A DNA stretch of 64,000 bases from a virus, in IMG/VR virus record IMGVR_UViG_3300033388_006651, positions 64,001-128,000 of that record; one strand, 5' to 3'. The translations under genes were made by a program, and so were the position numbers. This document shows positions 1,950-17,401 of the stretch, in pieces. The notes below the pieces were generated by a model that saw only the letters and a list, made by a program, of their open reading frames with translations, searched no databases and was not told the DNA's origin. Position 1 is the stretch's first letter. Each line of letters begins with the position of its first letter.

Positions 1950-1982
1950 CTACAGCTTGGATTTCAGTTTCATGCAGAACAT
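1950..1982 (-). promoter_or_regulatory. Lys-rich leader ORF MFCMKLKSKL* followed by a long hairpin
   Basis: ATG TTC TGC ATG AAA CTG AAA TCC AAG CTG TAG between promoter and tRNA-Lys cluster. Confidence 0.65.
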
Positions 1983-1992
1983 GATGTGTTCC

Positions 1993-2021
1993 GTTCTAGG
2001 GGAGCAAGACGGCGAAGTCAA
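1993..2021 (-). promoter_or_regulatory. sigma70-like promoter of the tRNA-Lys cluster
   Basis: TTGACT-N17-TAGAAC. Confidence 0.65.
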
Positions 2022-2126
2022 GCACCTCATTCAATTTTTCCTGGGGATCACCGAACGCCTCCCCAGGTGCCCGAACATCATTGAGAAAAGCAACGGTTCC
2101 CAACACGGCTGCGTAAAAAGAAGGCC

Positions 2127-2927
2127 ATGGAAACTCTTGCAGCGATCCCCATCATCCCCGACAACGCAGCCGGGTACTCCACCATCGCCAACGCCAAGAA
2201 CGCTCTGGACAAGGCTCAGATGCCAGATGGCTCTGTCAGTCTGTTCCTCCTCGTGCACCATTTTCTGGAGGGGATGCCCGAGGCTATCGCAGGTACTCGC
2301 GCTCTTCCGGGCACGCGTGGCCCAAACTCCACAGAGTCACCCCTCTTCGACAAGATTTTCCATGTCCCTCTCCCCTGGAAAGGTGGGGATGTAGACCTCC
2401 CCGAAGAAAGAAACCCCGTTGCTTTACTCAAGGCGCTGGATCGGTCCGGCAACCTGACGGCCCCGTACAAGACGGACATCGTGGTCTACGATCATGCGGA
2501 TCGCGGCACCCTCAAGATCACCCAGTGGCACGCTGATGACCCTCGTGGTGAACACCCCCACAATCATCCTTGGGCGGACGAGGAGCACACGAGTTTCGTC
2601 AGCTACATTGTTCGTGGCGGCTACACCGAGACGATCACCGACAACAACGGGGAGACCACGAGTCGTGATTACCGAGCTGGGGACCTCAACATCGCCAAGT
2701 ACACGGACTTTCACGCGGTCAACAACATTCTGCCCGGCACCTTGACCATCCTCATGTGTGCCCCCCGAGCAGTGGTCAAAGAAAAGGGAACGGAGTGGGG
2801 CTACCTGCTGTTTGAGGAGGGTCGTTCCGAACGGGTGGGCATGAACGATCCCCGGGTGAAAGATGAGACGTTCTTGCAGCGCGCGGCCGTGCAAAACGCG
2901 TCGCTGCGTTTCATCTACAAGAAGTAG
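2127..2927 (+). CDS. cupin-fold protein
   Basis: HPHNHPW...GGYTE...FHAV metal-binding cupin pattern. Confidence 0.65.
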   Translation: METLAAIPIIPDNAAGYSTIANAKNALDKAQMPDGSVSLFLLVHHFLEGMPEAIAGTRALPGTRGPNSTESPLFDKIFHVPLPWKGGDVDLPEERNPVALLKALDRSGNLTAPYKTDIVVYDHADRGTLKITQWHADDPRGEHPHNHPWADEEHTSFVSYIVRGGYTETITDNNGETTSRDYRAGDLNIAKYTDFHAVNNILPGTLTILMCAPRAVVKEKGTEWGYLLFEEGRSERVGMNDPRVKDETFLQRAAVQNASLRFIYKK

Positions 2928-2936
2928 CGCAACCGG

Positions 2937-3308
2937 TCACGCGTACTCAAGACCCCGAGCGTAAAGCCGCGCTCGACCGCCGACGATCTTGCCGACAAGT
3001 TCGTCGGCCCCGACCACGGGACGTTCTCCGCTGACCGTGACGAAGTGATCGAAACGGTATGGGTCATAGGTGATACGACGCCAGCCCCGAGTGGAGGGGG
3101 CCGTCTTCGGAGCCCGGTCTTCACCCCGAACCCCGGCGTGGACATTTTTGCGTTTCTCTCGGATGACACGCTGACGCCCCGACTCGCTCACGGAGAACTT
3201 CACGTTCTCCAGGTGAACGAAGTCGGCATGGCGTTGGACACGGGTGCCTCGACGCACCGAGTAGCGGTCCTTGTGGAGGTTCCAGTAGACGTAAACGCGT
3301 CCAGGCAC
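2937..3308 (-). CDS. phage hypothetical protein (YWNLH...RKNVHAG family)
   Basis: Clear paralogue at 18200-18574. Confidence 0.7.
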   Translation of the reverse strand: MPGRVYVYWNLHKDRYSVRRGTRVQRHADFVHLENVKFSVSESGRQRVIREKRKNVHAGVRGEDRAPKTAPSTRGWRRITYDPYRFDHFVTVSGERPVVGADELVGKIVGGRARLYARGLEYA

Positions 3309-3311
3309 CTC

Positions 3312-3665
3312 CTACTCTACCGGCTGAATCAGGGACGCGTAGGAGAGCAGTTCGCAGTAGATCTGTTCGCAGAACAGGAACAGCTCCAGGTGGTCTTCAC
3401 CCCTCTCCGGGCGCCAGTCTCGGGCGAACGTGAGGTAGTACGCTTGGCGAGCGCGCTCGAACACTTGTAGGTAGTCGAGGAAGGTTCTGTAGGAGGTGAC
3501 TTGCCCCTGGCGCTCCAAGGTCGCCTCCCGCAGCTCCTTGGCGGCTCTGTATTTGCGATTCGCCCGAGCGGGGTCCCCTCTGAACTCGGTGGCTACGTGC
3601 ACGGGGGTGAACTCACCCACCGTGATCACGCTGTCCCAGTCGCTGTCTTCGTTTTCGTCGCTCAT
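3312..3665 (-). CDS. hypothetical protein
   Basis: ATG ORF in a minus-strand run. Confidence 0.6.
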   Translation of the reverse strand: MSDENEDSDWDSVITVGEFTPVHVATEFRGDPARANRKYRAAKELREATLERQGQVTSYRTFLDYLQVFERARQAYYLTFARDWRPERGEDHLELFLFCEQIYCELLSYASLIQPVE

Positions 3666-3715
3666 ACCCCCTAGACGGATGGGCCTCAGAAAACTCCCCT
3701 CTTTCCTCAGATTTT

Positions 3716-3991
3716 TTAGAGGAGCCCCAGTTCCCGAAGCTGCTCACGAAAAGACCACTCGGAAAGTACCTCCTGACGTGACCGCGGCTCTGACCATTTC
3801 CAGGATTTGACCGCACGCCCGTTAAAACGACGAGGGTTCCCACAACCTGAACAGCTACACCACGCCAAGTTGTCGGCGTACTGAGCAGCGACCCGAGTCA
3901 ACTCAGGCTCCTCCACTCCCCAGCGTTCATTCATCCGGTACGCACGGGCCACCATGCGTTGACGGTGATGACGACGAAGCGCCCTAGACAT
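3716..3991 (-). CDS. small basic CGNPRR-motif protein, paralogue 1
   Basis: MSRALRRHH...CSCSGCGNPRR; start reassigned to ATG 3991. Confidence 0.7.
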   Translation of the reverse strand: MSRALRRHHRQRMVARAYRMNERWGVEEPELTRVAAQYADNLAWCSCSGCGNPRRFNGRAVKSWKWSEPRSRQEVLSEWSFREQLRELGLL

Positions 3992-4292
3992 CGACCCATC
4001 CCCGAAGCTCATCAAGCTCCTCTTGAAGCTCAGCTTCCGCCTGTTGCTCAGGAATGGTGAGCGGTGAGTACCAACCCCCACGACGGGGGTTCCCGCAACC
4101 GTGGTAGAGTTTTGAGCAGACCTTGAGGTGGTCGTGGTACTTGACGGCCCGAGAGTCGGCCAGGGTGTGATCCGGGCAGGTGAGAGGGTCGTTCCAGTCT
4201 TGGTCGTAGGAGCTATGCCAACGACGGGTGACGGTACGGGCTTTTGCGATCATGCGATCGCGATGATGACGGCGGAGTGCTCGTTGGGACAT
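3984..4292 (-). CDS. small basic CGNPRR-motif protein, paralogue 2
   Basis: MSQRALRRHH...CSKLYHGCGNPRR. Confidence 0.7.
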   Translation of the reverse strand: MSQRALRRHHRDRMIAKARTVTRRWHSSYDQDWNDPLTCPDHTLADSRAVKYHDHLKVCSKLYHGCGNPRRGGWYSPLTIPEQQAEAELQEELDELRGWVDV

Positions 4293-4347
4293 GCAGGGCT
4301 TTCGGCCCCAGCCCGGTCCTGAGAAGCACTATGCAGCTCAAGCCGGG

Positions 4348-4563
4348 CTAAGGCGTGATCTGCTTGTCCGGCGGATCGTCCATCTCCAACGCGAGACCCA
4401 CGAGCGTCTTTTTTCCATCGCGCTCAGCCATGCTGTTCATAAACTGGTCCCAAGGGACCGCACGCTTCGGAGGCGCTCCGACGAAGATGTACATCTCATG
4501 GCGTTCGGTGCCCGAGAGCATTTCGTCGAGCTCGGCGATGCCGGTTTTGAGTTCCTCAGCCAT
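4348..4563 (-). CDS. hypothetical protein resembling a RecA/DnaB N-terminal fragment
   Basis: LKTGIAELDEMLSG..YIFVG, but no intact P-loop. Confidence 0.45.
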   Translation of the reverse strand: MAEELKTGIAELDEMLSGTERHEMYIFVGAPPKRAVPWDQFMNSMAERDGKKTLVGLALEMDDPPDKQITP

Positions 4564-4596
4564 TCGTGAAAAGACTGCCCGACTATTACACTCGTG

Positions 4597-5604
4597 TCAA
4601 GAAGGGCAGAACGTGACGGTGTAGTTCACCAGGCCATTGGTTTTGCGGCAGTTGAAGGTCGCGGCTTTGTCATCGAACATCCAGGCGTACACCTGGGGAC
4701 AGCTCGCTTTGACGTTGGCGATGTAGCTCTGGCTCGTCGCATCCCAGGCCCGAGCTTTGTTGCTGTCCCAGGGGTTGCAGGTCTGGCCCTCCGGGTTGGG
4801 AGGGGTGCTGTAGGGAGAGCACCCGTAGGCGCACTTGGCGTCCCCACAAACGATCGGTTTCGACATCGAGCACGAGCAGCACAGCTTCGTCTGAGTGCTC
4901 GCAGGGTCCCCGCTGTTGACCGCGTTCTGGCACGGGCTCCAGCAGCTATCCCCTCCGGCGCTCAGACCACTGGGGCACGTCGGGGTCGAGGTGCAGCCCG
5001 ACACCGTGCACCACGGAGCCTGGAGACCAGGATCGGGTACGGGGTTGAAGGTCCCAGCAACGGCCACGATGGCGACAGGCTCGCTCCACCCGTCCACGAA
5101 GCTCACGTCGTAGGTGTCGTACGGACCCAGTCCTCCCATGGCATCGAAGGTGAACTCGGCGATCCCCACGGGAGCTTTCCCCGAGTAGGCGCACTCGAGC
5201 CCGAAGGTCTTGTTGTCCGAGGTGAGGCACGATCCGCTGGTGCAGCACGGCGTGAAGCCGTCGCACAGGTTCTGGTTGTTGAAGGTGCAACCGGTACGGG
5301 GCCAGATGCGACCGCTCCATCCCACGTCCACTTGGAGGGTCGTGGTGTCGGTGCCAGATCCGGCCGCTCCCATCTCCCAGCCACCGTTGTTGAGCCCGCT
5401 GAACCCGCTGTTGCCGACCGAGCCGACCCACACAGAGCTGGTGCACTTGTTGACGAAGTTCACCGTGTGCGTGGTCGGCGGGGTCCCCATGTCCAGTTTG
5501 GCCACTTCCGTGGGGGGATCAACGGCTGCTTCGCCGTCGGATCCTTTACAGGCAACCAGGGCCAGAGAGAACGCACCGAGGGACCAGAGTTTGCGAGCCA
5601 TCAC
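4597..5604 (-). CDS. thaumatin-like (PR-5 family) lipoprotein
   Basis: FVNKC..VWVG, GRIWPRTGC, EFTF, YDVSFVDG, CWSPC, CPQVYAWMFDD; LVAC lipobox. Confidence 0.9.
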   Translation of the reverse strand: MMARKLWSLGAFSLALVACKGSDGEAAVDPPTEVAKLDMGTPPTTHTVNFVNKCTSSVWVGSVGNSGFSGLNNGGWEMGAAGSGTDTTTLQVDVGWSGRIWPRTGCTFNNQNLCDGFTPCCTSGSCLTSDNKTFGLECAYSGKAPVGIAEFTFDAMGGLGPYDTYDVSFVDGWSEPVAIVAVAGTFNPVPDPGLQAPWCTVSGCTSTPTCPSGLSAGGDSCWSPCQNAVNSGDPASTQTKLCCSCSMSKPIVCGDAKCAYGCSPYSTPPNPEGQTCNPWDSNKARAWDATSQSYIANVKASCPQVYAWMFDDKAATFNCRKTNGLVNYTVTFCPS

Positions 5605-5638
5605 TCAAGGAGGTCCTCATAGGGGTAAAAATGATGAC

Positions 5639-6844
5639 ATGCTCGTCCTGTTCCCGTCTGACCCTTTTGAGACCTACAAGCCCGAGCCGGACTACGTCCA
5701 GGAGATCGAGATCGCAAAAGAGTGCGGCCACGAGGTTGCCTTCATCCATTGGGAAGCCCTGGTGAACGATGACGACGCTGCCGCGGCCATCAGGAAGGTT
5801 CCTGTTTTCGAGGATTCCACCCCTGCCATCTACCGGGGTTGGATGCTGACCTCCGAGCAGTACGAGAAGCTCTACGCAGAGCTCCAGATCCATGACGTTG
5901 ATCTGTTGACCACTCCCGACGCCTACCGTAAGGCCCATGAGTTCCCTGGGTGGTACTTGGAGATCCCGAAAGCGACTCCGGCGTCGGCGATCATCCAGAA
6001 GCATGAGATCAGCATGGAGAGGCTGCTCAGCAGGGCCAAGGAGATGCTCGAACAGTACGAGCACGGCATCATCATCAAGGACTACGTGAAAAGTCGGAAG
6101 CACGAGTGGGAGGAGGCGTGCTTCATCCCCGATATGTCCAAAGCTGAGGTGGTGATCGCCAACTTCCTCGAGCGCCAGGGTGACGCTCTCCAAGGCGGCG
6201 TTGTGCTCCGGGAGTTCGTGCCGCTCAAGTCGATCGGTAAGCACCCTGACTCGGGGATGCCAATGGGCGAGGAGTTCCGCATCTTCTGGATGAACGGTCG
6301 AGTGGCCGCCGCTGCGGAGTACTGGCCTTCCGAGTTCTACATCGGTGAGGAGCGTGAAGATGAGAACGCAGGTGACGGGAGCACGTACCGTGTGCCTCAT
6401 GCCCTGAGCACTCTCCCCGATCCACAGTCGCTTCTCGAACTCCTCGAAAACATCGACAACCCGTTCGTCTCGATGGACCTTGCGCGTGCCGAGGATGGTG
6501 AGTGGTTCGTCATGGAGATCGGCGACGGTCAGGTCTCTGGGCTCCCGCGCCCCAAGCTCGATGCCCGGCTCATTTACAGCCGGCTCGATCGGTTGCTCGG
6601 GCCTCCTGGGCTTGCCTCGGACGCGACACCGATGACCCAGGCACAGTTCGCCGGTATGACGTGCCACGCCGAAGGCTGCGACCACACCGGCCACGACACC
6701 GAGATGTACCTGCACCCCAAGTGCCACGTCGGTTCTCCGACCTGGGCGATTTACGAGGACGGCGTCATCAACGTGAAGTGTGCCGAGTGCAAGACGCTCG
6801 TGGTCAGAATCGCGGTTGACCCCGGTACGGTCGTCGAAGATTAG
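5639..6844 (+). CDS. ATP-grasp protein (R2K-like) with C-terminal Cys/His domain
   Basis: IYRGWML, IIKDYVKSRKHEW.EACFI, EFRIF, MDLA..EIGDGQVSG; start reassigned to ATG 5639. Confidence 0.75.
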   Translation: MLVLFPSDPFETYKPEPDYVQEIEIAKECGHEVAFIHWEALVNDDDAAAAIRKVPVFEDSTPAIYRGWMLTSEQYEKLYAELQIHDVDLLTTPDAYRKAHEFPGWYLEIPKATPASAIIQKHEISMERLLSRAKEMLEQYEHGIIIKDYVKSRKHEWEEACFIPDMSKAEVVIANFLERQGDALQGGVVLREFVPLKSIGKHPDSGMPMGEEFRIFWMNGRVAAAAEYWPSEFYIGEEREDENAGDGSTYRVPHALSTLPDPQSLLELLENIDNPFVSMDLARAEDGEWFVMEIGDGQVSGLPRPKLDARLIYSRLDRLLGPPGLASDATPMTQAQFAGMTCHAEGCDHTGHDTEMYLHPKCHVGSPTWAIYEDGVINVKCAECKTLVVRIAVDPGTVVED

Positions 6845-7050
6845 AGGGCGTGGTCTCGAATGGCCTTGGTCAGCCGGCGCACTTTATTGGTGAAAATAGA
6901 GTAGAACCGGGGGTCCACTTCGTGCAGGAGATGGAGGAGAGATTCGATCTCGGCCTCGGCATCTTCCTGGTCCACGATGTTCTTGGCGACGGCACGGGTG
7001 CAGTCGGGCTGAGAGGTGAGCCAGTGGTTGATGCGTTCTTCGTAAGTCAC
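6841..7050 (-). CDS. hypothetical protein
   Basis: 69-aa helical ORF. Confidence 0.5.
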   Translation of the reverse strand: MTYEERINHWLTSQPDCTRAVAKNIVDQEDAEAEIESLLHLLHEVDPRFYSIFTNKVRRLTKAIRDHAL

Positions 7051-7119
7051 GATCTAGGTGTATCGCAGGGTCTTGATCCGCCTCGGATCAAGCGCCGTCG
7101 AGAAAGTTGAAGAATTCGT

Positions 7120-7148
7120 TTGACTCGGCGTCTTAGTCCGCGTACACA
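7120..7148 (+). promoter_or_regulatory. sigma70-like promoter of the main tRNA operon
   Basis: TTGACT-N17-TACACA. Confidence 0.65.
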
Positions 7149-7195
7149 GAAATGGTCGCCGTCCCTTGGCAGGAACGCGACTCAAAGTCCCCGCC

Positions 7196-7288
7196 ATGAA
7201 ACACTCCACGACATACACAGCTACGACAACGACTACGGTCGTCGTGGCCGTCGTATTGCCCATTATGGGCGATATGACCTCGTGTTGA
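7196..7288 (+). promoter_or_regulatory. Thr/Val-rich leader peptide MKHSTTYTATTTTTVVVAVVLPIMGDMTSC*
   Basis: 9 Thr and 5 Val in 30 codons; followed by hairpin TTCCCGGCG/CGCCGGGAA. Confidence 0.75.
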
Positions 7289-7380
7289 GCATTTCCCGGC
7301 GTTGACCAAAACATCAAACGGCGCCGGGAACCCCCAAAGGGTTTGCTTCGCACGTTCAAAGGCCACGCTGGCTCCCATTC

Positions 7381-7456
7381 GCCGGTGTAGCTCAATTGGT
7401 AGAGCACTGGTTTTGTAAACCAGGGGTTGCGGGTTCGAGTCCCATTACCGGCTCCA
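7381..7456 (+). tRNA. tRNA-Thr(UGU)
   Basis: CTGGT TTTGTAA ACCAG; CCA end. Confidence 0.95.
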
Positions 7457-7487
7457 AGTATTTCTCTTCACCCAAGGAACAGACAAC

Positions 7488-7562
7488 GCCTTTGTAGCTC
7501 AGTGGTAGAGCAGCTCATTCGTAACGAGCAGGTCGTGGGTTCGATTCCCACCTTGGGCTCCA
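7488..7562 (+). tRNA. tRNA-Thr(CGU)
   Basis: TTCGTAA loop; CCA end. Confidence 0.92.
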
Positions 7563-7564
7563 AG

Positions 7565-7603
7565 CACCAACACCAACACCAACACCAACACCAACACCAT
7601 CAC
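7565..7603 (+). repeat. (CACCAA)n hexamer tandem repeat between tRNA-Thr genes
   Basis: caccaa x5 followed by caccatcac. Confidence 0.9.
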
Positions 7604-7611
7604 CGACATAA

Positions 7612-7686
7612 GCCCTTGTAGCTCAGTGGAAGAGCGCTTCCTTGGTAAGGAAGAAGTCACGAGTTCGATTCTCGTCTTGGGCTCCA
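7612..7686 (+). tRNA. tRNA-Thr(GGU)
   Basis: CTTCC TTGGTAA GGAAG; CCA end. Confidence 0.93.
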
Positions 7687-7837
7687 GGAACGCAGGACCC
7701 TCGTTCGAAGGTCACAAGCAAAAGGTAAAGACATCTGTTTTTCACACAGAAGACTGCGAGTTCGATTCTCGCCTTCCCCGCCATTTATGGGGAAGTGGTC
7801 ATAAGACGCACTCACCCCGCACACTCTCCTGCGTTCC
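7687..7837 (+). ncRNA. CACAAGC-module RNA carrying a circularly permuted tRNA-Glu(UUC)
   Basis: Outer stem GGAACGCAGGA/TCCTGCGTTCC; tRNA 3' part (7724-7783, ends GCCA) precedes the 5' part GGGGAAG-TG-GTC (7789-7804). Confidence 0.8.
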
Positions 7838-7854
7838 TTAATTTTCACCCTAAT

Positions 7855-7937
7855 CCCAGCGCCTCGTAGAGCGAGGCACACGACAGCAGCTTCGCTTCGA
7901 GGCGAAAATGGCAGGCGACCGGACGGCCTGTGGGATC
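7855..7937 (+). ncRNA. putative multibranch structured RNA
   Basis: ATCCCA/TGGGAT closing stem around three hairpins. Confidence 0.4.
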
Positions 7938-7998
7938 AAACAACCGATTTTTCTCAACCCCAACTTCAACCCCCAACGAACAGAAAGGACCGAGCACG

Positions 7999-8136
7999 AT
8001 GAACATCGAAAACGATGACTGCGATGATGTAGATGATACCTACGGAGCAGTGGCGCAGTTGGTAGCGCACTCGGTTGTCAGCCGAAAGGTCGCCGGTTCA
8101 AGTCCGGTCTGTTCCGCCAAGGGGGTGTTGGTCTAG
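7999..8136 (+). promoter_or_regulatory. Asp-rich leader ORF MNIENDDCDDVDDTY... reading through tRNA-Asp
   Basis: GAAAGGA RBS; 6 Asp in 8 codons directly before tRNA-Asp; stop inside the second tRNA-Asp. Confidence 0.75.
8044..8119 (+). tRNA. tRNA-Asp(GUC)
   Basis: TTGTCAG loop; GCCA end. Confidence 0.92.
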
Positions 8137-8198
8137 TTGGTTATGACGCTTCCCTGTCACGGAAGAAATCGCGGGTTCAAGTCCCGCACATCCCGCCA
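8122..8198 (+). tRNA. tRNA-Asp(GUC)
   Basis: CTTCC CTGTCAC GGAAG; GCCA end. Confidence 0.95.
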
Positions 8199-8204
8199 TT
8201 TTTT

Positions 8205-8279
8205 AGTCCTGTAGCTCAGTGGAAGAGCATTCCCGTCACATGGGAGAGGCCATCGGTTCGACCCCGATTGGGACTACCA
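8205..8279 (+). tRNA. tRNA-Val(CAC)
   Basis: TTCCC GTCACAT GGGAG; ACCA end. Confidence 0.88.
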
Positions 8280-8288
8280 AGAAAACAT

Positions 8289-8363
8289 AGCTCCGTAGCT
8301 CAGTGGCAGAGCAACACCTCGACATGGTGAAGGTCGTCGGTTCGATCCCGACTGGGGCTACCA
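8289..8363 (+). tRNA. tRNA-Val(GAC)
   Basis: ACACC TCGACAT GGTGA (C33); ACCA end. Confidence 0.88.
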
Positions 8364-8422
8364 ACACAACAAGTTACTAAGACACAAGGCCCTCCGTTCC
8401 ATTTTGTGCTACGCTCAGAAGA

Positions 8423-9097
8423 GTGAAGCCGGACAAACAAAAAGAGGCGCGTAGACTGCGTAAGCAGGGCCTTTCTTTGAGTGAGATCGTTACCAAAATT
8501 GGATGCGCAAAAAGTTCGGTTAGCCGCTGGACCCGGGATATCCCTCTCACTAAGACTCAAGTCAAAAACCTTCGACGAAAGGAAGATCAAGGACGACTTA
8601 AAGGCCGTATTGCAGCCGCTACCCATCCCAACTCTCCGAAACAGGTGTGGGCTAAAAAACGAGATGAAGCACGTCAAAAAGGGCACGAAGAGATTTCCCG
8701 GATCGATGACATCTCTCTCAAAATACTCATCGCGGCACTGTACTGGGGGGAAGGGTCAAAGGGTCGTAACAGTTTTTCCATAGCGAACACGGACCCTGCA
8801 ATGGTCCGCCTTATTGCCGCCTTTCTTCGAAAACATTGTCAAGTTCCTGAAGAGCGCCTTCGTTTTCGCGTCTACATTCATCCTCATTTGAGTCTCCGAA
8901 AAGCTCGTATTTACTGGGCTAAAATTGCAGGAACCTCCCCTAAAAATATCGCATCCACCACCGCTGTAAGCTCAGCTAGCCAAGGAAAGAAGGACTCGTG
9001 CCCTTACGGCACTTTTCAAATCACGTACTGTGACACCCTGTTTCGGTCTCGCATAGAAGGCTGGATGGATGCCTTGAAAGAACAGATACCGGGTTAG
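8423..9097 (+). CDS. HTH plus LAGLIDADG-like endonuclease inserted in the tRNA-Val cluster
   Basis: N-terminal HTH (GLSLSEI..KSSVSRW), ALYWGEG..F.IANTDP motif; more AT-rich codons; stop lies inside tRNA-Val(UAC). Confidence 0.7.
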   Translation: MKPDKQKEARRLRKQGLSLSEIVTKIGCAKSSVSRWTRDIPLTKTQVKNLRRKEDQGRLKGRIAAATHPNSPKQVWAKKRDEARQKGHEEISRIDDISLKILIAALYWGEGSKGRNSFSIANTDPAMVRLIAAFLRKHCQVPEERLRFRVYIHPHLSLRKARIYWAKIAGTSPKNIASTTAVSSASQGKKDSCPYGTFQITYCDTLFRSRIEGWMDALKEQIPG

Positions 9098-9161
9098 CTC
9101 AGTGGTAGAGCGCTGCCCTTACAAGACGGATGCAAGAGTTCAATTCTCTTACCCGGTACCA
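9088..9161 (+). tRNA. tRNA-Val(UAC)
   Basis: CTTACAA loop; ACCGGGT/ACCCGGT-ACCA. Confidence 0.9.
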
Positions 9162-9201
9162 GACCTCAAACCTCAACCTCTAACCACGAAAGGAACCGAC
9201 C

Positions 9202-9264
9202 ATGGAAAAAGAAGACAGCGACATTAGCGACATTATCTACTCGGCCCGTGGTCCAGTCTGGTAA
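9202..9264 (+). promoter_or_regulatory. Ile-containing leader ORF MEKEDSDISDIIYSARGPVW* reading into tRNA-Ile
   Basis: GAAAGGA RBS; ATT, ATT, ATC codons just before tRNA-Ile(GAU); stop in the D-loop. Confidence 0.65.
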
Positions 9265-9316
9265 TGGATGTCGCTCTGATAAGGCGAAGACGGAGGTTCA
9301 AATCCTCCCGGGCCGA
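9242..9316 (+). tRNA. tRNA-Ile(GAU)
   Basis: TCGCT CTGATAA GGCGA; CGGCCCG/CGGGCCG-A. Confidence 0.9.
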
Positions 9317-9326
9317 CCGACTACAT

Positions 9327-9403
9327 GGACGTGTAGCTCAGTTGGTTAGAGCGCAGCCCTGATAAGGCTGAAGTCGAAAGTTCAAATCTTTCTACGTCCA
9401 CCA
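9327..9403 (+). tRNA. tRNA-Ile(GAU)
   Basis: CAGCC CTGATAA GGCTG; ACCA end. Confidence 0.95.
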
Positions 9404-9424
9404 AGAGATTTCCAAAACACATAT

Positions 9425-9499
9425 AGCGGGATGGCGCAGTCAGGTAGCGCGCTGGGCTCATAACCCAGAGGTCGTCGGTTCAAATCCAACTCTCCGCTA
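9425..9499 (+). tRNA. tRNA-Met(CAU), initiator-like
   Basis: CTGGG CTCATAA CCCAG with three G-C pairs; small acceptor-stem irregularity. Confidence 0.88.
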
Positions 9500-9505
9500 C
9501 TAAGG

Positions 9506-9663
9506 GCAGTAGAAGTCTGCTTGCGAAATATCTCCCTTCACCGGGAAGAGACGCTAGCGAACAAAACTTCATCCTCGCAACGGAGTTGAGGGGAGAGCAG
9601 TAGGAGATCTGCTTGCGACAATAGGCCCCGTAACTGGGTATCGAAGATAGCGAACAAAACTCC
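9506..9663 (+). ncRNA. tandem pair of a structured RNA motif (GCAGTAG..TCTGCTTGCGA-hairpin-TAGCGAACAAAACT)
   Basis: Two copies, 9506-9570 and 9597-9663, with conserved flanks and different central hairpins. Confidence 0.65.
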
Positions 9664-9672
9664 AACACTTGA

Positions 9673-9750
9673 CGCGGGTTGGGGAAGTCCGGCCATCCCG
9701 GTGGGCTCATAATCCACAGACCCTCGGTTCAAATCCGAGACCCGCTACCA
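9673..9750 (+). tRNA. tRNA-fMet(CAU)
   Basis: C1-U72 mismatch, CTCATAA loop, ACCA end. Confidence 0.92.
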
Positions 9751-9809
9751 AATCCAGTTCGACAGTGTGCGCCCGTGCGAGCCGAACCGAGTGTAGAAAC
9801 GGGCCTCAT

Positions 9810-9887
9810 GCCAGAATAGCTCAGTTGGTTAAGAGCGCTCCCCTCATAAGGGAGAGGTCATCGGTTCAAATCCGATTTCTGGTACCA
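9810..9887 (+). tRNA. tRNA-Met(CAU), elongator or Ile2 type
   Basis: CTCCC CTCATAA GGGAG; ACCA end. Confidence 0.9.
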
Positions 9888-9904
9888 CAAGAAACCAAGA
9901 AGCC

Positions 9905-10018
9905 ATGAACATCCACCTGAAACAGTTGCCCATCGGCACGGCCAGTCGCATCTCGTTGTTTGCGGCCGGACAGGTGTGTTCTGCCTATCTCCCCAATCTG
10001 GAGACAGGTAGCGGATAA
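9905..10018 (+). promoter_or_regulatory. 37-aa leader peptide of a putative attenuator
   Basis: MNIHLKQLPIGTASRISLFAAGQVCSAYLPNLETGSG* just before alternative terminator/antiterminator pairings. Confidence 0.55.
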
Positions 10019-10041
10019 CCCTCAGCTCGATCATGGCGCCT

Positions 10042-10077
10042 AAAAGCCCGTCGAGCTCCCTGCTCGCCGGGCTTTTT
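10042..10077 (+). terminator. intrinsic terminator (attenuator)
   Basis: AAAAGCCCG-TCGAGC..GCTCG-CCGGGCTTTTT; AGCTCGA at 10024 can sequester the 5' arm. Confidence 0.75.
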
Positions 10078-10245
10078 CGTGCTCGGGCCAAGGATCAACG
10101 GCCCTCTCGAGCCCTTTTTCGCCAAACCCTCCCTGGGCCCTCCTTTTCGGACATTTTCACGAACTTTTCACGAACCAAACCAACCACGGGGTACAAGGGA
10201 CGAGCCCGAGTGCTCTGCTTTTCACGAATCAGGACAGACAAGCCA

Positions 10246-12114
10246 ATGGACAACAAAGAAACACTCGGACCCGCAGAGACCATCATCCAGTCACTGCTGG
10301 CCTACTCAGATCACATCTACCACGGCCGCCCCGGCGTCGTGGTGCCCGACGCGCGATCCACGACCGGAGTGCGATGGGACCCCGTCACCCACAAGGTCGG
10401 AGAGGACGGCGTCAAGACCGTTCTTCGCCTCACGCGAAACGGCAAGAAGACCATTCGTACCGAGATCGGCACGATGAACGGCGACAATCGTGTGAAGAAC
10501 GCGGGTGCCGATGTCGGCCTGTACCGCAAGAGCGGCCTCTTCCCAGAGGTTGCCCTGTGGTTCTACAAGCAGATCGCTGAGGTGTGGACGCTCGACAACG
10601 AATTCGCTGCTCGGTGGGCGTCGTACGCCTTCCGTCAGGAGCACCGTGACCTCAAGGTCATGCTCGCTGCGTTCATGCTCGTTCAGTCGCGTAAGGGCGA
10701 CCCCGTCATGGACGGGGGTGAGCGTCTGTTCGACGACGAGGACTACCGTGACGTGGGCGAGGCCATGGTCCTTCTCCTTGAGAAGGGCAACGACCTCAAC
10801 CCGAAGCTCCTGCTTCGGATCTACGATGTCCTGAACCTGCCCGAGATCGCAAAGATCAACCACGAGCTCGGCTTCGGCAAGTCCGCCAAGCGTCCGTTCC
10901 TCGGTCGTTGGCCCAAGGCGATCGACAAGTACCTTCGGTACCGCGAGGAGAACCCGAAGCTGCTCGAAGGGCTCGTCAACAAGGCTGCTTTCGGCAACAC
11001 CGTCAAGACTCTGGCTCGGCGTATCGGCTACAAGCCAACGTCCGACAAGTTCTTCGCTACCCTACGCTGGAAGCAGAAGCAGGCTGAAGACGGGCGTCGT
11101 GAGATGGCCATCGGTAAAGCCGTGAGGGCTGCTGAGTCGTGGGATCACCTCGACGAAGCCGGTGTTTGCGAGCTCATCGAGAAGAACAAGCCTGGCTGGA
11201 AGCGGATCGTGGGTCTCCTTCCTGCGAAGATCGGGGTCACCCGTGCGGTGATGGCTGCGACCATCGAGTCGGGCGGTCTCTCGGACAAGGATCTCATCAT
11301 CCTCACTCCAACGATCGAGGATCTTGGTCTGTTCAAGGTCCAGGAGATCAAGGCGCGTCATGCTGCGGCTCTCGCCAAGGCAAGCGACATGCGTGCGGCT
11401 AACATCGCCCGCAACGTTCGGTCCAAGGATCTCAAGGAGGAGATGGAGACCGGTGCCGACAAGGCAGCTCAGAAGGCTGCTGAGGAGGTCATCAAGAACC
11501 TGCGCCTCTACGTCGTCATCGACCGTTCGGCGTCGATGCAGGGAGCACTGGAGAAGGCGAAGCCACTGATCGCCAAGCTCATTCAGGCAATCCCAGCCGA
11601 GCGTCTGCACGTTTCGACGTTCAACACGATCGGTAAGGTGATCACCTTCAAGCACCACTCGACCGCTGGGGTCGAGGCAGCTTTCCGGGGCGTCAACGCC
11701 GGAGGGGGCACGGTGCACGCAGAAGGTGTTCGGGTTCTGGCTCAGTTCCCGCCTGCGGCAGACGAGGACTCCCTGATGATCTTCATCGGGGACGAGGGCG
11801 AGCGTCGGCACTTTGCCGAAGCTGTGGAGGCATCTGGTCTCCGTCCCCTGGCCTTCGGGCTCCTCGCCACGGTGGGTCCTCGTTGGGGTCGCGGTCAGGC
11901 GATTCGGGACACGGCTGCTCGACTGGACATCCCGTGCTTCGAGATCGATGACCGCACCTTTGATGGCGACCCGTACGCCATCCCGCGTACGATCAGGAAC
12001 CTGATCGCGGCTACCCCTGTGGGGGTGAACACCGGTCGTCGCGTCGTCCCGCGCGTGACGCTGGTGGGTCAGATCCTGGAGACCGAGATTCTCCAGAAGC
12101 CCAACTGGGCATAG
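10246..12114 (+). CDS. Ro60/TROVE-like protein with C-terminal vWA domain
   Basis: Long basic helical N-terminal region plus VIDRSASM MIDAS, GGGT, FIGDEG; the Ro60 relationship is inferred from architecture and ncRNA context; start reassigned to 10246. Confidence 0.6.
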   Translation: MDNKETLGPAETIIQSLLAYSDHIYHGRPGVVVPDARSTTGVRWDPVTHKVGEDGVKTVLRLTRNGKKTIRTEIGTMNGDNRVKNAGADVGLYRKSGLFPEVALWFYKQIAEVWTLDNEFAARWASYAFRQEHRDLKVMLAAFMLVQSRKGDPVMDGGERLFDDEDYRDVGEAMVLLLEKGNDLNPKLLLRIYDVLNLPEIAKINHELGFGKSAKRPFLGRWPKAIDKYLRYREENPKLLEGLVNKAAFGNTVKTLARRIGYKPTSDKFFATLRWKQKQAEDGRREMAIGKAVRAAESWDHLDEAGVCELIEKNKPGWKRIVGLLPAKIGVTRAVMAATIESGGLSDKDLIILTPTIEDLGLFKVQEIKARHAAALAKASDMRAANIARNVRSKDLKEEMETGADKAAQKAAEEVIKNLRLYVVIDRSASMQGALEKAKPLIAKLIQAIPAERLHVSTFNTIGKVITFKHHSTAGVEAAFRGVNAGGGTVHAEGVRVLAQFPPAADEDSLMIFIGDEGERRHFAEAVEASGLRPLAFGLLATVGPRWGRGQAIRDTAARLDIPCFEIDDRTFDGDPYAIPRTIRNLIAATPVGVNTGRRVVPRVTLVGQILETEILQKPNWA

Positions 12115-12125
12115 GAGTAAACCTC

Positions 12126-13058
12126 ATGGGATGGAGAGACCTAATCACAACCAAGGAGGAGACCACCACTCTTCCGTGGACCGGAGGACGGTCTCTCCAC
12201 TCCGGGTCCCGAACCTTCAAGCTCGGGGCCCGGCCTCGGGACTTTGGCTGGTACACCTTCGACCTCGAAGGCAACAAGGCCAAGGACCCGAAGCCCGCTG
12301 ACCCAGTTCCTGAGATTCTCAAGAGCTCCGTCAAGGGCTATCTGGTCGGGGACCGTCTGGTCCCCGATGACACCCGGATCGATCCCGACCCGGCCAAGAT
12401 CATCAACTACTCGGAGAAGGTCTACCTCCTTCCCGAAGAACTCGACCGGTTCTCGCGTGTGCGAGCCGGCCGCATTTACCCCGAGGGGCCTCTCATTTTT
12501 CTTGAGCAGGAATTCCCCCTCGGCCCCGAGGACGAAGTCATGGAAGCATTCTTCGACAACAAGATCAGCACCTTCGGTATCCGAAGCGTCGCGCCCGCAC
12601 TCGATGCGGCTTTCCGTATGGAGGTCTACCAGCGTCAGCAGGCAGAGTTCCGTCGGCAAGAACTGATCCGGCTTCGTGCCGAGGAGGAGGCACGTCTTGC
12701 CAAGGAGGAGCGCCGCAAGGAGATGATCGAGAAGCTCGGGGATGGCGCTGGCCGTCGTGCGATGGCCCAGGAAAACTTCGGTGAAGCCGCTCGGGCTGCC
12801 CTCATGGTCGGTGGTGCTCAGTACCTCGACCACCGAAAGGGAGGGCGTAAAGGTGAATGGGTCGTCAAGTATCGCGTCGATGGGCAACGCCTTGAGTGCG
12901 TGTGCGACACCAACCTCCAGATCATCGACGCAGGCGTTTGCCTTGTCGATCACGGAACCAACGAAAAGGGCGACACCTACTTCACCCTCGAATCACTGCC
13001 TGCGGTCATCCGTCAGGCCATCCGCGAGCACAAGCTCGTCGTATGGAGACACATCTAA
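12126..13058 (+). CDS. hypothetical protein of the vWA-JAB-Ubl-E1 operon
   Basis: AGGAG RBS; coiled-coil middle; ECVCD..DAGVCL C-terminal region. Confidence 0.75.
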   Translation: MGWRDLITTKEETTTLPWTGGRSLHSGSRTFKLGARPRDFGWYTFDLEGNKAKDPKPADPVPEILKSSVKGYLVGDRLVPDDTRIDPDPAKIINYSEKVYLLPEELDRFSRVRAGRIYPEGPLIFLEQEFPLGPEDEVMEAFFDNKISTFGIRSVAPALDAAFRMEVYQRQQAEFRRQELIRLRAEEEARLAKEERRKEMIEKLGDGAGRRAMAQENFGEAARAALMVGGAQYLDHRKGGRKGEWVVKYRVDGQRLECVCDTNLQIIDAGVCLVDHGTNEKGDTYFTLESLPAVIRQAIREHKLVVWRHI

Positions 13059-13633
13059 TGGAATTCAAAGACATCAACATCAAGGCCGTCGGCACCGAGG
13101 TTCTCCTCGTGGGCGGCGTCTGGGCTGGCCAGGGTCAGACCTTCGTGTGCCTGTATCCGCAAGAGGAGCAGGAAGGGGACGTTCACGTCCTCGACATGAC
13201 CCGCGAGGATTGGGCCGCACTGCTTCGGCAGTCGGACCTGATGGAGACGGAAGTTCTGGCGAAGGCCGAGGACGGAAAACTCTACAAGGCCATCGCTCGC
13301 AAGAGCCAACGCAACATCGACCAGGGCACTTCCTGGAACGTGTTCCGACGGGACGGGTACGCCTGCCGCTACTGCGGCAACGACAAGATCCCCCTTACCG
13401 TGGACCACCTCGTGCTCTGGGAAGAGGGCGGTCCTTCTCTCGAGGAGAACCTCCTGTCCGCTTGTCGCAAGTGCAACAAGGTGCGTGGCAACACGCAGTA
13501 CGCGGACTGGCTCAAGCACCCCTTCTACCTGGGGAAGTCCAAGAACCTGACGCCCGAGGTCCGAGCCGCCAATGAGGCGATCCTCGGGACTCTCGACGCC
13601 ATCCCACGGCACACCAAGAAGAGGAAGCGATAG
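13058..13633 (+). CDS. HNH endonuclease
   Basis: VFRRDGYACRYCG...TVDHL...GG....NLLSAC.KCN; start at ATG 13058. Confidence 0.85.
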   Translation: MEFKDINIKAVGTEVLLVGGVWAGQGQTFVCLYPQEEQEGDVHVLDMTREDWAALLRQSDLMETEVLAKAEDGKLYKAIARKSQRNIDQGTSWNVFRRDGYACRYCGNDKIPLTVDHLVLWEEGGPSLEENLLSACRKCNKVRGNTQYADWLKHPFYLGKSKNLTPEVRAANEAILGTLDAIPRHTKKRKR

Positions 13634-13635
13634 TC

Positions 13636-14007
13636 ATGATCGAAACAGGTCTAGTCGTAACTGACGCTGGTCCCGTCTACTGGCACCTGCCGCGAGGCAG
13701 GACCGGTGGCAGCCTTCCCGACAGCCGCTCGCTGTGGGACGTGCTGTGGGAACTCCGTAGGGAACCGTTCCTGGGAGTCGCCCACAGCCATCCGGGCTCG
13801 GGAATTCCCGGGCCGTCCATGACGGACATCACTACCTTCTCCGGGGTCGAGCTCGGGCTTGGCCGTCGGCTCACCTGGTGGATCACCAGCTCATCACACA
13901 TGATCGGCCTGAACTACGCAGGACCGACCAAGTACAACTACAACTCTTTCCCCGTGAAGGAGCCCTACTGGGCTGCGCAACTGCGGGAGTTCTCGAAAGG
14001 ACAATGA
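13636..14007 (+). CDS. JAB/MPN+ metalloprotease
   Basis: N-terminal E (ETG) and HSHPGSGIPGPSMTD JAMM motif. Confidence 0.85.
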   Translation: MIETGLVVTDAGPVYWHLPRGRTGGSLPDSRSLWDVLWELRREPFLGVAHSHPGSGIPGPSMTDITTFSGVELGLGRRLTWWITSSSHMIGLNYAGPTKYNYNSFPVKEPYWAAQLREFSKGQ

Positions 14008-14267
14008 ACATGGAAAACAACGAAGCACGCGTCAACATCACCTACGGGGGGAACAACGGGGATCTCCCTGACCCCGTCCTGTTCGACTCCACTGATGGCG
14101 ACATCAAGGGGTGGATCACGGAAGCTGTCGCAGGGGGTTCCGTCCCCGGTATCCCGGCGGACGGCAACGTGGATTTCACGGATTTCGTCGTGGATCGCTT
14201 CTCGGCTAACGCTGAGCGCGACTACAATTTAATTCAGATAAGACCTAAAACTCCATTCGGGTGTTGA
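14004..14267 (+). CDS. ubiquitin-like (beta-grasp) protein
   Basis: About 87 aa with a beta-beta-alpha-beta-beta pattern ending IRPKTPFG-C, between JAB and E1. Confidence 0.65.
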   Translation: MNMENNEARVNITYGGNNGDLPDPVLFDSTDGDIKGWITEAVAGGSVPGIPADGNVDFTDFVVDRFSANAERDYNLIQIRPKTPFGC

Positions 14268-14280
14268 CCGAAGACACCGT

Positions 14281-15243
14281 TTGGTCTACGATCAAACGGT
14301 GCCAGAAGATCTCGACCTGGATGCTCTCGTGAGCCGGTACGAGGAGGGGGCGAGTGCCGCTTCTCTCGGCCGGGATTTCGGGGTCAGCACCTGGACGGTT
14401 CTGAACCGTCTCAGGGGTGCTGGGATCCGTATTCGTTCCAACAAGGAGCAGAACGAGAAACGGCTCGATCTGGATGAGGTGCAACAGCGGCGTCTCGTTG
14501 AGATCGTAGACGGGCTCCTCCTTGGAGATGGGTCCATTGATCCCAAAGGGAGTTTGCGCATCGAACAGACTCAGGACCATTTGGGTTGGTTCGATTCGAT
14601 CCAACAAGCCCTTGGGAGTGTCGGGGCGGTTTCGCGACGCACCCCTGTCGCACCTCGCGTCCGTTTCATTAAGGATCATGAGGCGCACGGCAAAGGAGGC
14701 GCCGTCTTTTACACGCCCTGCTACGTTGAGCTCCAAGAGCAGCGGCAGCGGTGGTATCCGAAAGGAAAGAAGCGCGTCCCCGAGGATGTGCTCCTCACGC
14801 CTCTAAGCATTGCCTACTGGTTCTGTGGGGATGGTTCCTATGACAAGCCGGGATCGCTCGTGTTCTACACCAACTCTTTTTTCAAGAAGGAGACAGAGCG
14901 TTTGGCTCGGGGCCTTACCAAGCTCGGTGTTCGGGCCCGGTGTCGTCCTGTGGGACAACACCGATACCGCGAATGGAAAATCCACATCCTTCGGCGTGAC
15001 GATGCCCTGCGGCTTCGTGAACTGATGGGGGATCATGTGCCGGAGTGTTTCCAGTACAAGTTCGTATACGTCCGAGCGGCCATTCCACCAGGTTCTACGA
15101 CCGCTAAGCTGACTTTCACGCAGGCCCAGGAAATCCGGGAGCGTACAAAGAACGGGGAAACCCAGACGGCGCTGGCCAAGGAATTCGGGGTCTCCCAAAC
15201 CGCGATCCGCCAGATCGTTCGCGGGAAAGTCCACAAGCCATGA
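14281..15243 (+). CDS. free-standing LAGLIDADG homing endonuclease with HTH domains
   Basis: GLLLGDGS and AYWFCGDGS motifs; WYPKGKK.VP. Confidence 0.85.
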   Translation: MVYDQTVPEDLDLDALVSRYEEGASAASLGRDFGVSTWTVLNRLRGAGIRIRSNKEQNEKRLDLDEVQQRRLVEIVDGLLLGDGSIDPKGSLRIEQTQDHLGWFDSIQQALGSVGAVSRRTPVAPRVRFIKDHEAHGKGGAVFYTPCYVELQEQRQRWYPKGKKRVPEDVLLTPLSIAYWFCGDGSYDKPGSLVFYTNSFFKKETERLARGLTKLGVRARCRPVGQHRYREWKIHILRRDDALRLRELMGDHVPECFQYKFVYVRAAIPPGSTTAKLTFTQAQEIRERTKNGETQTALAKEFGVSQTAIRQIVRGKVHKP

Positions 15244-15464
15244 AACCCAAACACGAGAAAACTCTTGAGGTAGCAAAGCGCTGCCTGGAGTACCCGGAGA
15301 CAGAGCTGAGCCGTTTGGAGATCAAGAACCTCTTACTCTGTTACAGAGATGCAATAGAGAGCCGCTACGAGACTTGGGAGATCGCTGAGGCTTGGGACAC
15401 GGATAGTCCGATGGGCACGTTGAGGCGGTTGGGACAGAACCGAGAAAAGGAAATGGGAACGTGA
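15240..15464 (+). CDS. hypothetical protein
   Basis: ATGA-coupled 74-aa ORF. Confidence 0.5.
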   Translation: MKPKHEKTLEVAKRCLEYPETELSRLEIKNLLLCYRDAIESRYETWEIAEAWDTDSPMGTLRRLGQNREKEMGT

Positions 15465-15729
15465 AAATTACGATCATGAAAATTACGATCATCGATTGCA
15501 GGGACACTCGTGTGTCTAAGGAGCAGAACTCGTGATCGGGAAATACATTCTGGCCGGCAATACCTCCCACCTGTGGGGGTGCGAAATACATGTCTGCTCT
15601 CTTTGTGGGCAACATCAAGACTCGGCCGAAGAAACATGTCCTGAAGGGCGCCGCATGATGGGTTTTCGAATTTCGACTGGGGATGCCAAAAGCATCAAGG
15701 AGATACCAACATGAAAATTACGATCATCG
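15461..15729 (+). repeat. direct repeats of the ThiF gene start (TGAAAATTACGATCA) x3
   Basis: Copies at 15462, 15477 and 15712. Confidence 0.85.
15532..15714 (+). CDS. small Cys-rich hypothetical protein
   Basis: HVCSLCG...TCP; coupled to the ThiF start. Confidence 0.45.
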   Translation: MIGKYILAGNTSHLWGCEIHVCSLCGQHQDSAEETCPEGRRMMGFRISTGDAKSIKEIPT

Positions 15730-16280
15730 GAGTCGGAGCACTGGGCTCACACCTCGTGCAAGCTCTTCGGAACGAGAAGGTGACCCTCAAGGTCATCGAC
15801 TTCGACCGCGTCGAGATGAAGAACGTCGCTTCTCAGTTTCACTTCAAGAACGGAGTGGGCAAAAAGAAGGTCGATGCTCTCAAGCAGGCGATGCAATTCT
15901 GCTACGGCCGGAAGATCGAGATCGTGGGCAACAAGCTCACGGCGGACAACGTTGACCAGCTCCTGGGCGACGCTGACCTGCTCGTGGACTGCCTGGACAA
16001 CGGAGAAGCCCGGACGCTCGTCCAGGGCTTCGCTCGAGCCAATGGGGTGCCGTGCGTGCACGGAGCTCTTGCGGCCGATGGTGGCTTCGGTAGGGCCGTA
16101 TGGACTTCCGGTTTTGTTATTGACAGCGAGACATTGGGTGCGGCAACATGTGAAGACGGTGCCTTCCTCCCGTTCATCCAGCTCGTTGCCACACGCCTCG
16201 CGTACGTCGTCCAGCGATTCCTCCAAACTGGGGAGAAGCACAACTTCAACATCTTCCCCGGCGGCGTCACTAAATTCTAG
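15711..16280 (+). CDS. ThiF/MoeB/E1-like adenylyltransferase
   Basis: IIGVGALG, IDFDRVEMKN..SQ, GKKKV, VDCLDN..AR; candidate catalytic Cys in ATCED. Confidence 0.9.
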   Translation: MKITIIGVGALGSHLVQALRNEKVTLKVIDFDRVEMKNVASQFHFKNGVGKKKVDALKQAMQFCYGRKIEIVGNKLTADNVDQLLGDADLLVDCLDNGEARTLVQGFARANGVPCVHGALAADGGFGRAVWTSGFVIDSETLGAATCEDGAFLPFIQLVATRLAYVVQRFLQTGEKHNFNIFPGGVTKF

Positions 16281-16284
16281 GGCC

Positions 16285-17265: not shown

Positions 17266-17275
17266 AAAAAAGTGG

Positions 17276-17304
17276 TTGACTTCCCTCAGCCCCCGATCCA
17301 ATCT
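17276..17304 (+). promoter_or_regulatory. sigma70-like promoter of the ncRNA array
   Basis: TTGACT-N17-CAATCT. Confidence 0.55.
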
Positions 17305-17317
17305 GTTCGTCCAGGCT

Positions 17318-17401
17318 GTTTCCCACGCGCAGGTCTCACAAGCACAACCCCGGTCCGAAGTGACCGGGACACTGAAGCCTCCCAGACCGCGCCCTCGAAA
17401 C
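17318..17401 (+). ncRNA. CACAAGC-module RNA with a simple hairpin payload
   Basis: GTTTC/GAAAC P1, GGTCT/AGACC P2, CACAAGCA. Confidence 0.6.

Follow-up and report, generated by a model that had tools for sequence, protein, structure and literature searches.

Cognate-codon leaders precede tRNA gene clusters in a giant-phage fragment and may gate tRNA production

This study concerns a 64,000-nt stretch of viral DNA (hereafter the window; positions 64,001 to 128,000 of IMG/VR record IMGVR_UViG_3300033388_006651), in which clusters of tRNA genes were found to be preceded by short open reading frames (ORFs) enriched in codons for the amino acids of the tRNAs downstream. A first-pass annotation had proposed four such leaders, for Lys, Thr/Val, Asp and Ile, and direct reading of the ORFs located all four. 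Two classes can be distinguished. Class A comprises the Lys leader and a Thr/Val/Ile/Met/Asp master leader, with Gln, Glu and other members in relatives, and follows the order promoter, leader, stop, structured spacer, tRNA. Class B comprises the Asp, Ile and His leaders and a second Lys mini-ORF; here, the ribosome-binding site lies inside the operon and the ORF has no stop before the tRNA, its frame running into the tRNA itself. Summed over the three regulatory explanations considered below, it is very likely that these leaders regulate their cognate tRNAs. The record containing the window is 146,769 bp long and 28% complete according to CheckV. Given that the relatives recovered through the adjacent VWA gene and the leader motif are contigs of 213-619 kb, it represents a fragment of a giant phage.

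Organization of the tRNA units

The Lys unit lies on the minus strand. Its sigma70-like promoter (TTGACT-17-TAGAAC, 1993-2021), whose spacing is the same in 7 relatives, is followed by a near-leaderless class A leader (1950-1982), the ATG of which stands about 10 nt past the -10 box. This leader has 10 codons, three of them Lys (AAA, AAA, AAG), and a second ATG at 1973. A gap of 53 nt separates it from tRNA-Lys(CTT) at 1820-1896, the first gene that would be gated, and a putative switch RNA with two mutually exclusive helices occupies 1893-1950. A second copy of tRNA-Lys(CTT) is found at 1657-1730, and both copies were detected by ARAGORN and Rfam. Further downstream, the second Lys mini-ORF (1430-1486), which has homologues in L001, L144 and L255 and a single Lys codon (AAA) within a conserved Leu-Lys-Arg motif, reads into a degenerate tRNA-Lys(TTT)-like gene (1373-1439). 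Two tRNA-Lys(TTT) genes identified by tRNA scan follow, one with a variant anticodon loop (1294-1368) and the other past an inserted 145-aa ORF (348-422). The five tRNA-Lys genes previously counted therefore include four that are recognized by ARAGORN and Rfam and one, the gene at 1373-1439, that both programs missed and that lacks a canonical T-loop.

The Thr-Asp-Val-Ile-Met operon, on the plus strand, begins with a sigma70-like promoter (TTGACT-17-TACACA, 7120-7148) that is conserved 5' of the Thr leaders. All Thr-leader transcripts share an invariant small stem-loop at their 5' end, CCCTTGGCAGG (7157-7175, +), which is possibly a protein-binding or initiation element; the Thr leader itself has no Shine-Dalgarno sequence (SD). 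Of the 30 codons of the class A master leader (7196-7288), 9 are Thr and 5 are Val; Ile, Met and Asp also occur, so that all five amino acids of its own operon are represented. It ends 92 nt before tRNA-Thr(TGT). A conserved RNA structure without a U tract spans 7247-7388, and the genes for tRNA-Thr(TGT), (CGT) and (GGT) occupy 7381-7686 (ARAGORN, Rfam). Six ACCAAC-type repeats (7563-7611, +) lie immediately 5' of tRNA-Thr(GGT); one of their frames reads as Thr (ACC) codons with no start, and they are not kept in relatives.

The class B Asp leader (7999-8136) is served by the SD GAAAGGA (7983-7989), which is preceded by a C-rich, G-poor unstructured linker. From its ATG at 7999, six Asp codons occur within 14 codons, and 6 nt separate the last of them from tRNA +1. 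The ORF then crosses the first tRNA-Asp and stops at 8136 within the second. The two tRNA-Asp(GTC) genes (8044-8198) exhibit different anticodon loops, the first a variant (TTGTCAG) and the second canonical (CTGTCAC). They are followed by tRNA-Val(CAC), (GAC) and (TAC) at 8205-9161, interrupted by an ORF of 224 aa containing a helix-turn-helix (HTH) motif (8423-9097). The Thr/Val leader had been described as preceding three Thr and three Val genes; the leader is present, but the Val genes come only after the Asp genes, 0.9-1.8 kb further downstream. The class B Ile leader (9202-9264; SD 9188-9194) has 3 Ile in 12 codons, and its stop codon falls within the D-loop of tRNA-Ile. The Asp and Ile leaders do adjoin their tRNAs, as previously claimed, but they do not end there, as both ORFs extend into the tRNA genes. 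Two tRNA-Ile(GAT) and three tRNA-Met(CAT) genes complete the operon (9242-9887; ARAGORN, Rfam), with a tandem pair of a motif of about 90 nt between the tRNA-Met genes (9503-9665, +) that shows conserved flanks, a variable hairpin and no Rfam match. A GC hairpin followed by a U tract, resembling an intrinsic terminator, lies 3' of the operon at 10044-10078 (+); it was read directly, has a long loop and was not listed by the terminator scan.

The His leader ORF (21622-21757, +) reads into tRNA-His(GTG) and has only one in-frame His in the window. In relatives, the His leader carries a run of His codons that stops 6-7 nt short of the tRNA; this run is also lost in L167. As L167 has the identical single-His form, an assembly error in the window was rejected.

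Cognate enrichment and conservation of the leaders

For each tRNA unit, all ORFs with an ATG or GTG start lying no more than 250 nt away were scored and the amino-acid labels were permuted, a procedure that removes picking bias. The window gave p=6.5e-4; only in the Lys, Thr/Val, Asp and Ile units did the cognate residue come first among the 20 amino acids. Cognate enrichment exceeded permutation in 6 of the 7 clade data sets. The comparison with shuffled pairings that the first-pass annotation had suggested was thus above chance in relatives G002 and G006 (both p<1e-4), G001 (p=1.5e-4), G007 (p=5.5e-4) and L161 (p=0.0014), these related genomes not being independent of one another. Two controls were included: G003 gave p=0.048, and the distant relative Rctr197k, which comes from an enrichment culture and is the closest GenBank phage record by VWA protein, showed no significant cognate enrichment (p=0.13). 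Raw binomial p values against the codon usage of the long ORFs of the window genome were 9e-5 for Thr, 2e-4 for Asp, 0.007 for Lys, 0.02 for Ile and 0.046 for Val.

A motif taken from the end of the Thr leader matched 5 viral contigs, 26 metagenomic contigs and 1 genome-bin contig, and the same tRNA operon was found in all but two of them (short or chance matches). When the operon was compared with cultured phages by blastn, only the tRNA bodies matched. Leaders are kept in about 20 related contigs; 15 distinct Asp leaders (5-8 Asp each, SD of the GAAAGGA type), 11 distinct Ile, 4 His and 7 Lys leaders were recovered. Among the 18 distinct Thr leaders, start, frame and stop are fixed and all gaps within the ORF are triplets, with free indels in the flanks. 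The conserved start, frame and stop of the leaders, together with an SD or a near-leaderless position, would be compatible with their translation.

Two near-complete relatives exhibit extra leaders for Gln, Glu, Pro/Arg, Trp/Cys, Leu and an Ile2-like tRNA(CAT). One leader in these genomes, rich in Ala, Ser, Gly and Arg and also containing Cys and Trp, lies 5' of an Arg-Ser-Gly-Ala-Trp-Cys tRNA block. The multivalent leaders spell out the operon downstream. The match extends to individual codons: in two genomes, TTA and TTG are found 5' of Leu(TAA) and Leu(CAA), and ATA is found 5' of the Ile2-like tRNA(CAT), these codons representing 1%, 16% and 2%, respectively, of their codon families in the window genome. 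This codon-level matching suggests that the sensed entity would be the tRNA species, beyond the amino acid alone. Wobble codons are also preferred in the leaders (ATT 23/29, GAT 65/98 and CAT 10/15, against 17%, 34% and 29% genome-wide).

A search for an SD followed by an Asp run identified one more clade member, L226. A looser DNA pattern (Asp run plus tRNA-Asp) was rejected as a finder, as it returned mostly chance matches. An odd tRNA-like gene was observed directly 5' of the Asp leader in three relatives (L138:3743-3812, L140:3213-3282 and L226:6748, all on the minus strand); its apparent anticodon varies (TGT, GGT, AGT) and its loops are non-canonical.

RNA structure and ribosome geometry

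With regard to class A, the strand just 3' of the stop codon in the Lys unit can form either a local hairpin or a long helix to tRNA nucleotides -14 to +4, the two being mutually exclusive. Both covary among 7 sequences, one helix being 87% paired with 5 two-sided pairs and the other 91% paired with 6. The Thr unit exhibits four helices: an intra-leader hairpin, a helix over the stop codon, an inner hairpin and an outer helix from the Val codons. These covary (86.5% paired, 25 two-sided changes, 0/500 shuffles), and pairing falls to 35-48% when they are slid. The outer helix overlaps a competing hairpin onto nucleotides 1-8 of tRNA-Thr, which is 85% paired with no excess covariation. A conserved RNA switch is thus present in the Lys and Thr units, the sign of which is not fixed by the sequences. 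When the Glu leaders of two relatives were folded with a ribosome mask, the expected sign emerged clearly, predicted burial of the tRNA 5' strand being 0.00-0.07 with the ribosome stalled at the first Glu and 0.74-0.98 with the ribosome at the stop. An anti-acceptor hairpin in every leader was considered and rejected as a general rule, the excess being confined to part of the Thr set.

With regard to class B, leader length ranges between 9 and 20 codons. Despite this variation, the end of the final cognate codon lies 4-7 nt from tRNA +1 in 29 of 30 cases (Asp 15/15, Ile 10/11, His 4/4), where shuffling gives 0.2-0.4 per leader. As the leaders form three homologous families, and hence about three independent events, this spacing is suggestive rather than proof. 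Counted from the P-site codon, mRNA unwinding by a ribosome takes place at about +11 to +13, and the edge of the entry channel lies at about +13. A spacing of 4-7 nt therefore places tRNA +1 immediately outside the mRNA entry channel. This geometric model suggests that a ribosome with the last cognate codon in its A site would just spare the acceptor stem, and that its next step would begin to melt it.

According to this prediction, the 3' edge of a stalled ribosome coincides with tRNA +1. Such a location would also suit a shield of RNA stability, in which the stalled ribosome halts 5'-to-3' decay by an RNase J-type enzyme or prompts a cleavage 5' of itself, thereby protecting or releasing the tRNA. 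Cleavage of this kind at ribosomes stalled by an anticodon nuclease has been documented in mycobacteria (PMC13096801). Nevertheless, such a shield leaves the alternative helices of class A unexplained, and we consider it improbable.

Comparison with known control systems

Leader peptides rich in cognate codons are well known from the enterobacterial transcription attenuators thrL, ilvL/ivbL, hisL and pheM. The phage leaders resemble the thrL/hisL type in that a short ORF carries a run of cognate codons, some leaders are multivalent and alternative helices lie over the stop codon. The enrichment of short leader ORFs in cognate codons is shared with that type, and mutually exclusive helices overlapping the leader end were found in class A only (Lys, Thr). 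In contrast, the terminator scan found no intrinsic terminator (hairpin and U tract) between leader and tRNA for any leader, and in 15 of the 18 Thr leaders no 8-nt window contains more than 4 T. Since no U-tract terminator separates leader and tRNA, this is not attenuation of the thrL type; the element at 10044-10078 indicates that the phage possesses terminator-like elements although its leaders lack them. Moreover, the known attenuators control protein genes, those of the thrL/hisL type being biosynthetic or synthetase genes, whereas the phage targets are tRNA genes, and class B ORFs differ further in reading into the regulated RNA. The cognate-codon control initially proposed is therefore retained in part: coupling of leader and tRNA is well supported by conservation, codon matching and geometry, but the switchable terminator of the thrL/hisL type is absent. 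Searches against Rfam leader families, including T-box, over the whole window and over 7000-23200 at E<=1 yielded only tRNAs and sub-threshold chance matches. Cases of T-box control of tRNA genes are known from Clostridia.

A closer parallel for terminator-free control is offered by tnaC, speFL and cruR, which are attenuators based on Rho and an upstream ORF (PMC12360218). In these systems, too, the position of a ribosome on an upstream ORF controls the downstream RNA with no intrinsic terminator and with C-rich tracts. They differ in sensing a ligand through nascent-peptide arrest or in having mRNA targets, and none gates tRNA genes by cognate runs. With these as precedents, a ribosome stalled on a phage leader could cover or block C-rich rut sites, letting the host polymerase transcribe the tRNAs, and one that had finished the leader would permit Rho termination; the sign would be that of the folding mechanism presented below, with control exerted on transcription. 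A multisubunit RNA polymerase was not found in 5 clade or related genomes (2 clade members at 92-94% completeness), and the tRNA units have sigma70-like promoters, so host polymerase, Rho and RNase P are likely players. Leaders and linkers are also C-rich, G-poor and unstructured (C 0.33-0.45, G 0.04-0.14), a composition that is not specific, A/C-rich spacers being common in tRNA operons anyway, and the multivalent leaders imply an operon-wide output. However, Rho would need neither the 4-7 nt spacing and the reading into the tRNA nor a helix gripping tRNA nucleotides -14 to +4. We rate Rho-dependent attenuation as the chief alternative, possible but less likely than the folding mechanism; it may coexist with control of folding and would be likeliest for the class A master leaders.

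By analogy, the nearest natural counterpart is the terminator-free polycysteine regulon of mycobacteria, with its leaderless small-ORF attenuators (10.1101/834739). It shares near-leaderless homopolymer ORFs, a switch without terminator and a ribosome-directed regulon of several units, but its output is the ribosome-binding site of a protein gene, it responds to one amino acid and it is chromosomal. For the step that may be controlled here, synthetic RNase P riboswitches demonstrate that burying the 5' leader in a hairpin suffices to block tRNA maturation in vivo (PMC8925977). The sequestered 5' leader is the common element, whereas those devices are engineered, ligand-driven and without ribosome input. 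The trn L-array of Anabaena consists of spare tRNA genes induced in translational stress, and leaders or attenuation do not appear in that paper (PMC8421152). Phage replacement tRNAs with altered anticodon loops have been proposed to act against host anticodon nucleases, with no expression control proposed (PMC10264068). Leader-gated tRNA genes were not found in the literature searched, subscription papers being outside its coverage. We regard the phage leaders as a genuine, conserved variant of a known sensor, the output of which may be new.

Proposed mechanism

Each tRNA is probably made only when ribosomes stall on its codons. The mechanism that we favor, to which we give an even chance, is that the position of the ribosome decides whether the tRNA precursor folds and matures, with no intrinsic terminator involved. 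A host ribosome would translate the leader on the tRNA precursor. When the cognate aminoacyl-tRNA is plentiful, the ribosome would proceed in class B into the tRNA sequence and unwind it; in class A, it would break the helix over or after the stop, and the competing helix would bury the tRNA 5' end. The unfolded or buried precursor would not be matured and would be degraded or cut short by Rho. When the cognate tRNA is scarce, the ribosome would stall on the cognate run, just before the tRNA in class B or 5' of the switch in class A, whereupon the tRNA could fold and be released by host RNase P and other nucleases. The outcome would be a negative-feedback loop for each tRNA species. For class B, we tentatively propose, with somewhat less than even confidence, a natural ribosome-gated switch of tRNA maturation by which a tRNA meters its own output. 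A ribosome crossing the gene would hold the tRNA unfolded, maturation would require a stall on cognate codons half a ribosome's width upstream, and a nuclease-resistant variant would be released only once a host anticodon nuclease has depleted the native tRNA.

Several observations weigh against this interpretation, in addition to the small number of independent class B events. When equilibrium folding was modelled with the ribosome masked, neither the Lys and Thr units nor those for Gln, Pro and Tyr yielded a clean sign, and pairing of the leader with the tRNA 5' strand was above the shuffled level in no more than a part of the Thr leaders. The stops of class B range from +21 to beyond +170. 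The Val, Ile, Met and Asp codons of the master leader imply operon-wide control, which could not be achieved if folding were switched only locally, at the first tRNA. Furthermore, no cognate run was found for the His leader of the window or for many units (Phe, Val-TAC, Met). The leaders could instead be non-regulatory, acting as small proteins or as decoys occupying ribosomes or synthetases, or being chance or vestigial ORFs; the many tRNA units without a leader, the lack of cognate enrichment in the L164 fragment (p=0.48; Leu, Pro and Tyr units) and the loss of the His run in the sub-lineage of the window would all fit. Yet the peptides drift in sequence, whereas more than 10 amino-acid specificities retain the cognate residue, the rare cognate codons, the SD, the spacing and the helices, and a non-regulatory role appears unlikely to us.

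Trigger and significance

The first-pass annotation had interpreted the leaders as sensors of tRNA depletion, for example by a host anticodon nuclease, that would serve in counter-defence. Cleavage by the anticodon nuclease VapC4 stalls ribosomes on cognate codons, including those of Cys attenuator ORFs (PMC13096801), which renders such a trigger plausible. In the clade, the leader-proximal tRNA-Asp has a non-canonical anticodon loop in 17 of 17 cases and the second copy a canonical one in 12 of 12; the Ile loops are mostly canonical. A variant-loop tRNA-Asp would fit a nuclease-evading tRNA supplied on demand (compare PMC10264068), and this is the sole hint of a nuclease trigger. Sequence cannot separate nuclease cleavage from amino-acid starvation or plain tRNA exhaustion as the trigger, and it is about evenly balanced whether the purpose of the sensor is a response to anticodon nucleases.

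For more than 50 years, the purpose of phage-borne tRNAs has been a matter of debate (PMC10264068). If the proposed control is correct, the phage leaders record, codon by codon, which decoding failures are monitored, making the question testable. In the case of class B, translation across a tRNA gene would constitute an undescribed natural control of tRNA maturation. The leaders would also provide a compact, portable sensor for the loss of any chosen tRNA, which could detect anticodon-nuclease defences.

Likely host and neighboring genes

The host of the clade is probably a myxobacterium. The EF-Tu of one relative has its best named matches in Enhygromyxa, Nannocystaceae and other Myxococcota, and the bacterial cluster nearest to the VWA protein is mostly Myxococcota. 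One copy of the operon motif lies in a contig binned to a Gemmatimonadota metagenome-assembled genome, which makes this assignment tentative. RtcB and PTH2 were not found in the 28%-complete record of the window; G006 has two RtcB and one PTH2. In a 497-kb relative, EF-Tu and an ORF resembling ribosomal protein L7/L12 are encoded inside the tRNA operons (L002:860-2035; L011 near 3800-3935). Across the clade, the tRNA operons are sorted partly by biosynthetic family: Thr-Asp-Val-Ile-Met with Lys nearby, Ser-Gly-Ala-Trp-Cys, and Pro-Arg-Leu-Tyr.

Just 3' of the Lys tRNAs lies a 218-aa gene (G000:C1:62943-63599, minus strand; L256:4944-5600) whose match to release factor 1 is confined to the catalytic C-terminal half of that protein; in G001 and G006, an RF-1-domain gene stands at the equivalent position. 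Its product could rescue ribosomes left on cut leaders. The 622-aa VWA-domain protein (10246-12114, +) is a possible distant relative of Ro60/TROVE, with no PDB or NCBIfam match. Several RNAs resembling Y-RNA (YrlA) were observed at 7687-7835 (+) and 17330-18135 (+), with a T-arm, a loop-closed acceptor stem and an outer stem in which the motifs CACAAGC and CACTC are conserved. They have no Rfam Y-RNA match, are conserved in relatives and flank the VWA protein, which has TROVE clusters among its Atlas neighbours. A tRNA-Ile called by ARAGORN at 17877 and an Rfam match at 17581 lie inside these modules, and their anticodons vary between relatives. A tRNA-Leu(TAA)-like gene with a hairpin insert of about 30 nt in its D-loop, missed by ARAGORN and Rfam, is located at 22939-23046 (+).

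ORFs resembling mobile homing-endonuclease genes occur in or near the tRNA and non-coding RNA arrays (8423-9097, +; 842-1279, -; 14281-15243, +; 15874-17265, +). Their insertion sites vary among relatives, and 8423-9097 gave no more than a weak HTH match. Other genes in the window include an R2K ATP-grasp protein (19907-21523, -), an endonuclease V-like gene (22220-22735, +) and, both recognized by eye only, a thaumatin-like Cys-rich lipoprotein (4597-5604, -) and a vanadium-haloperoxidase-like gene (5634-6844, +).

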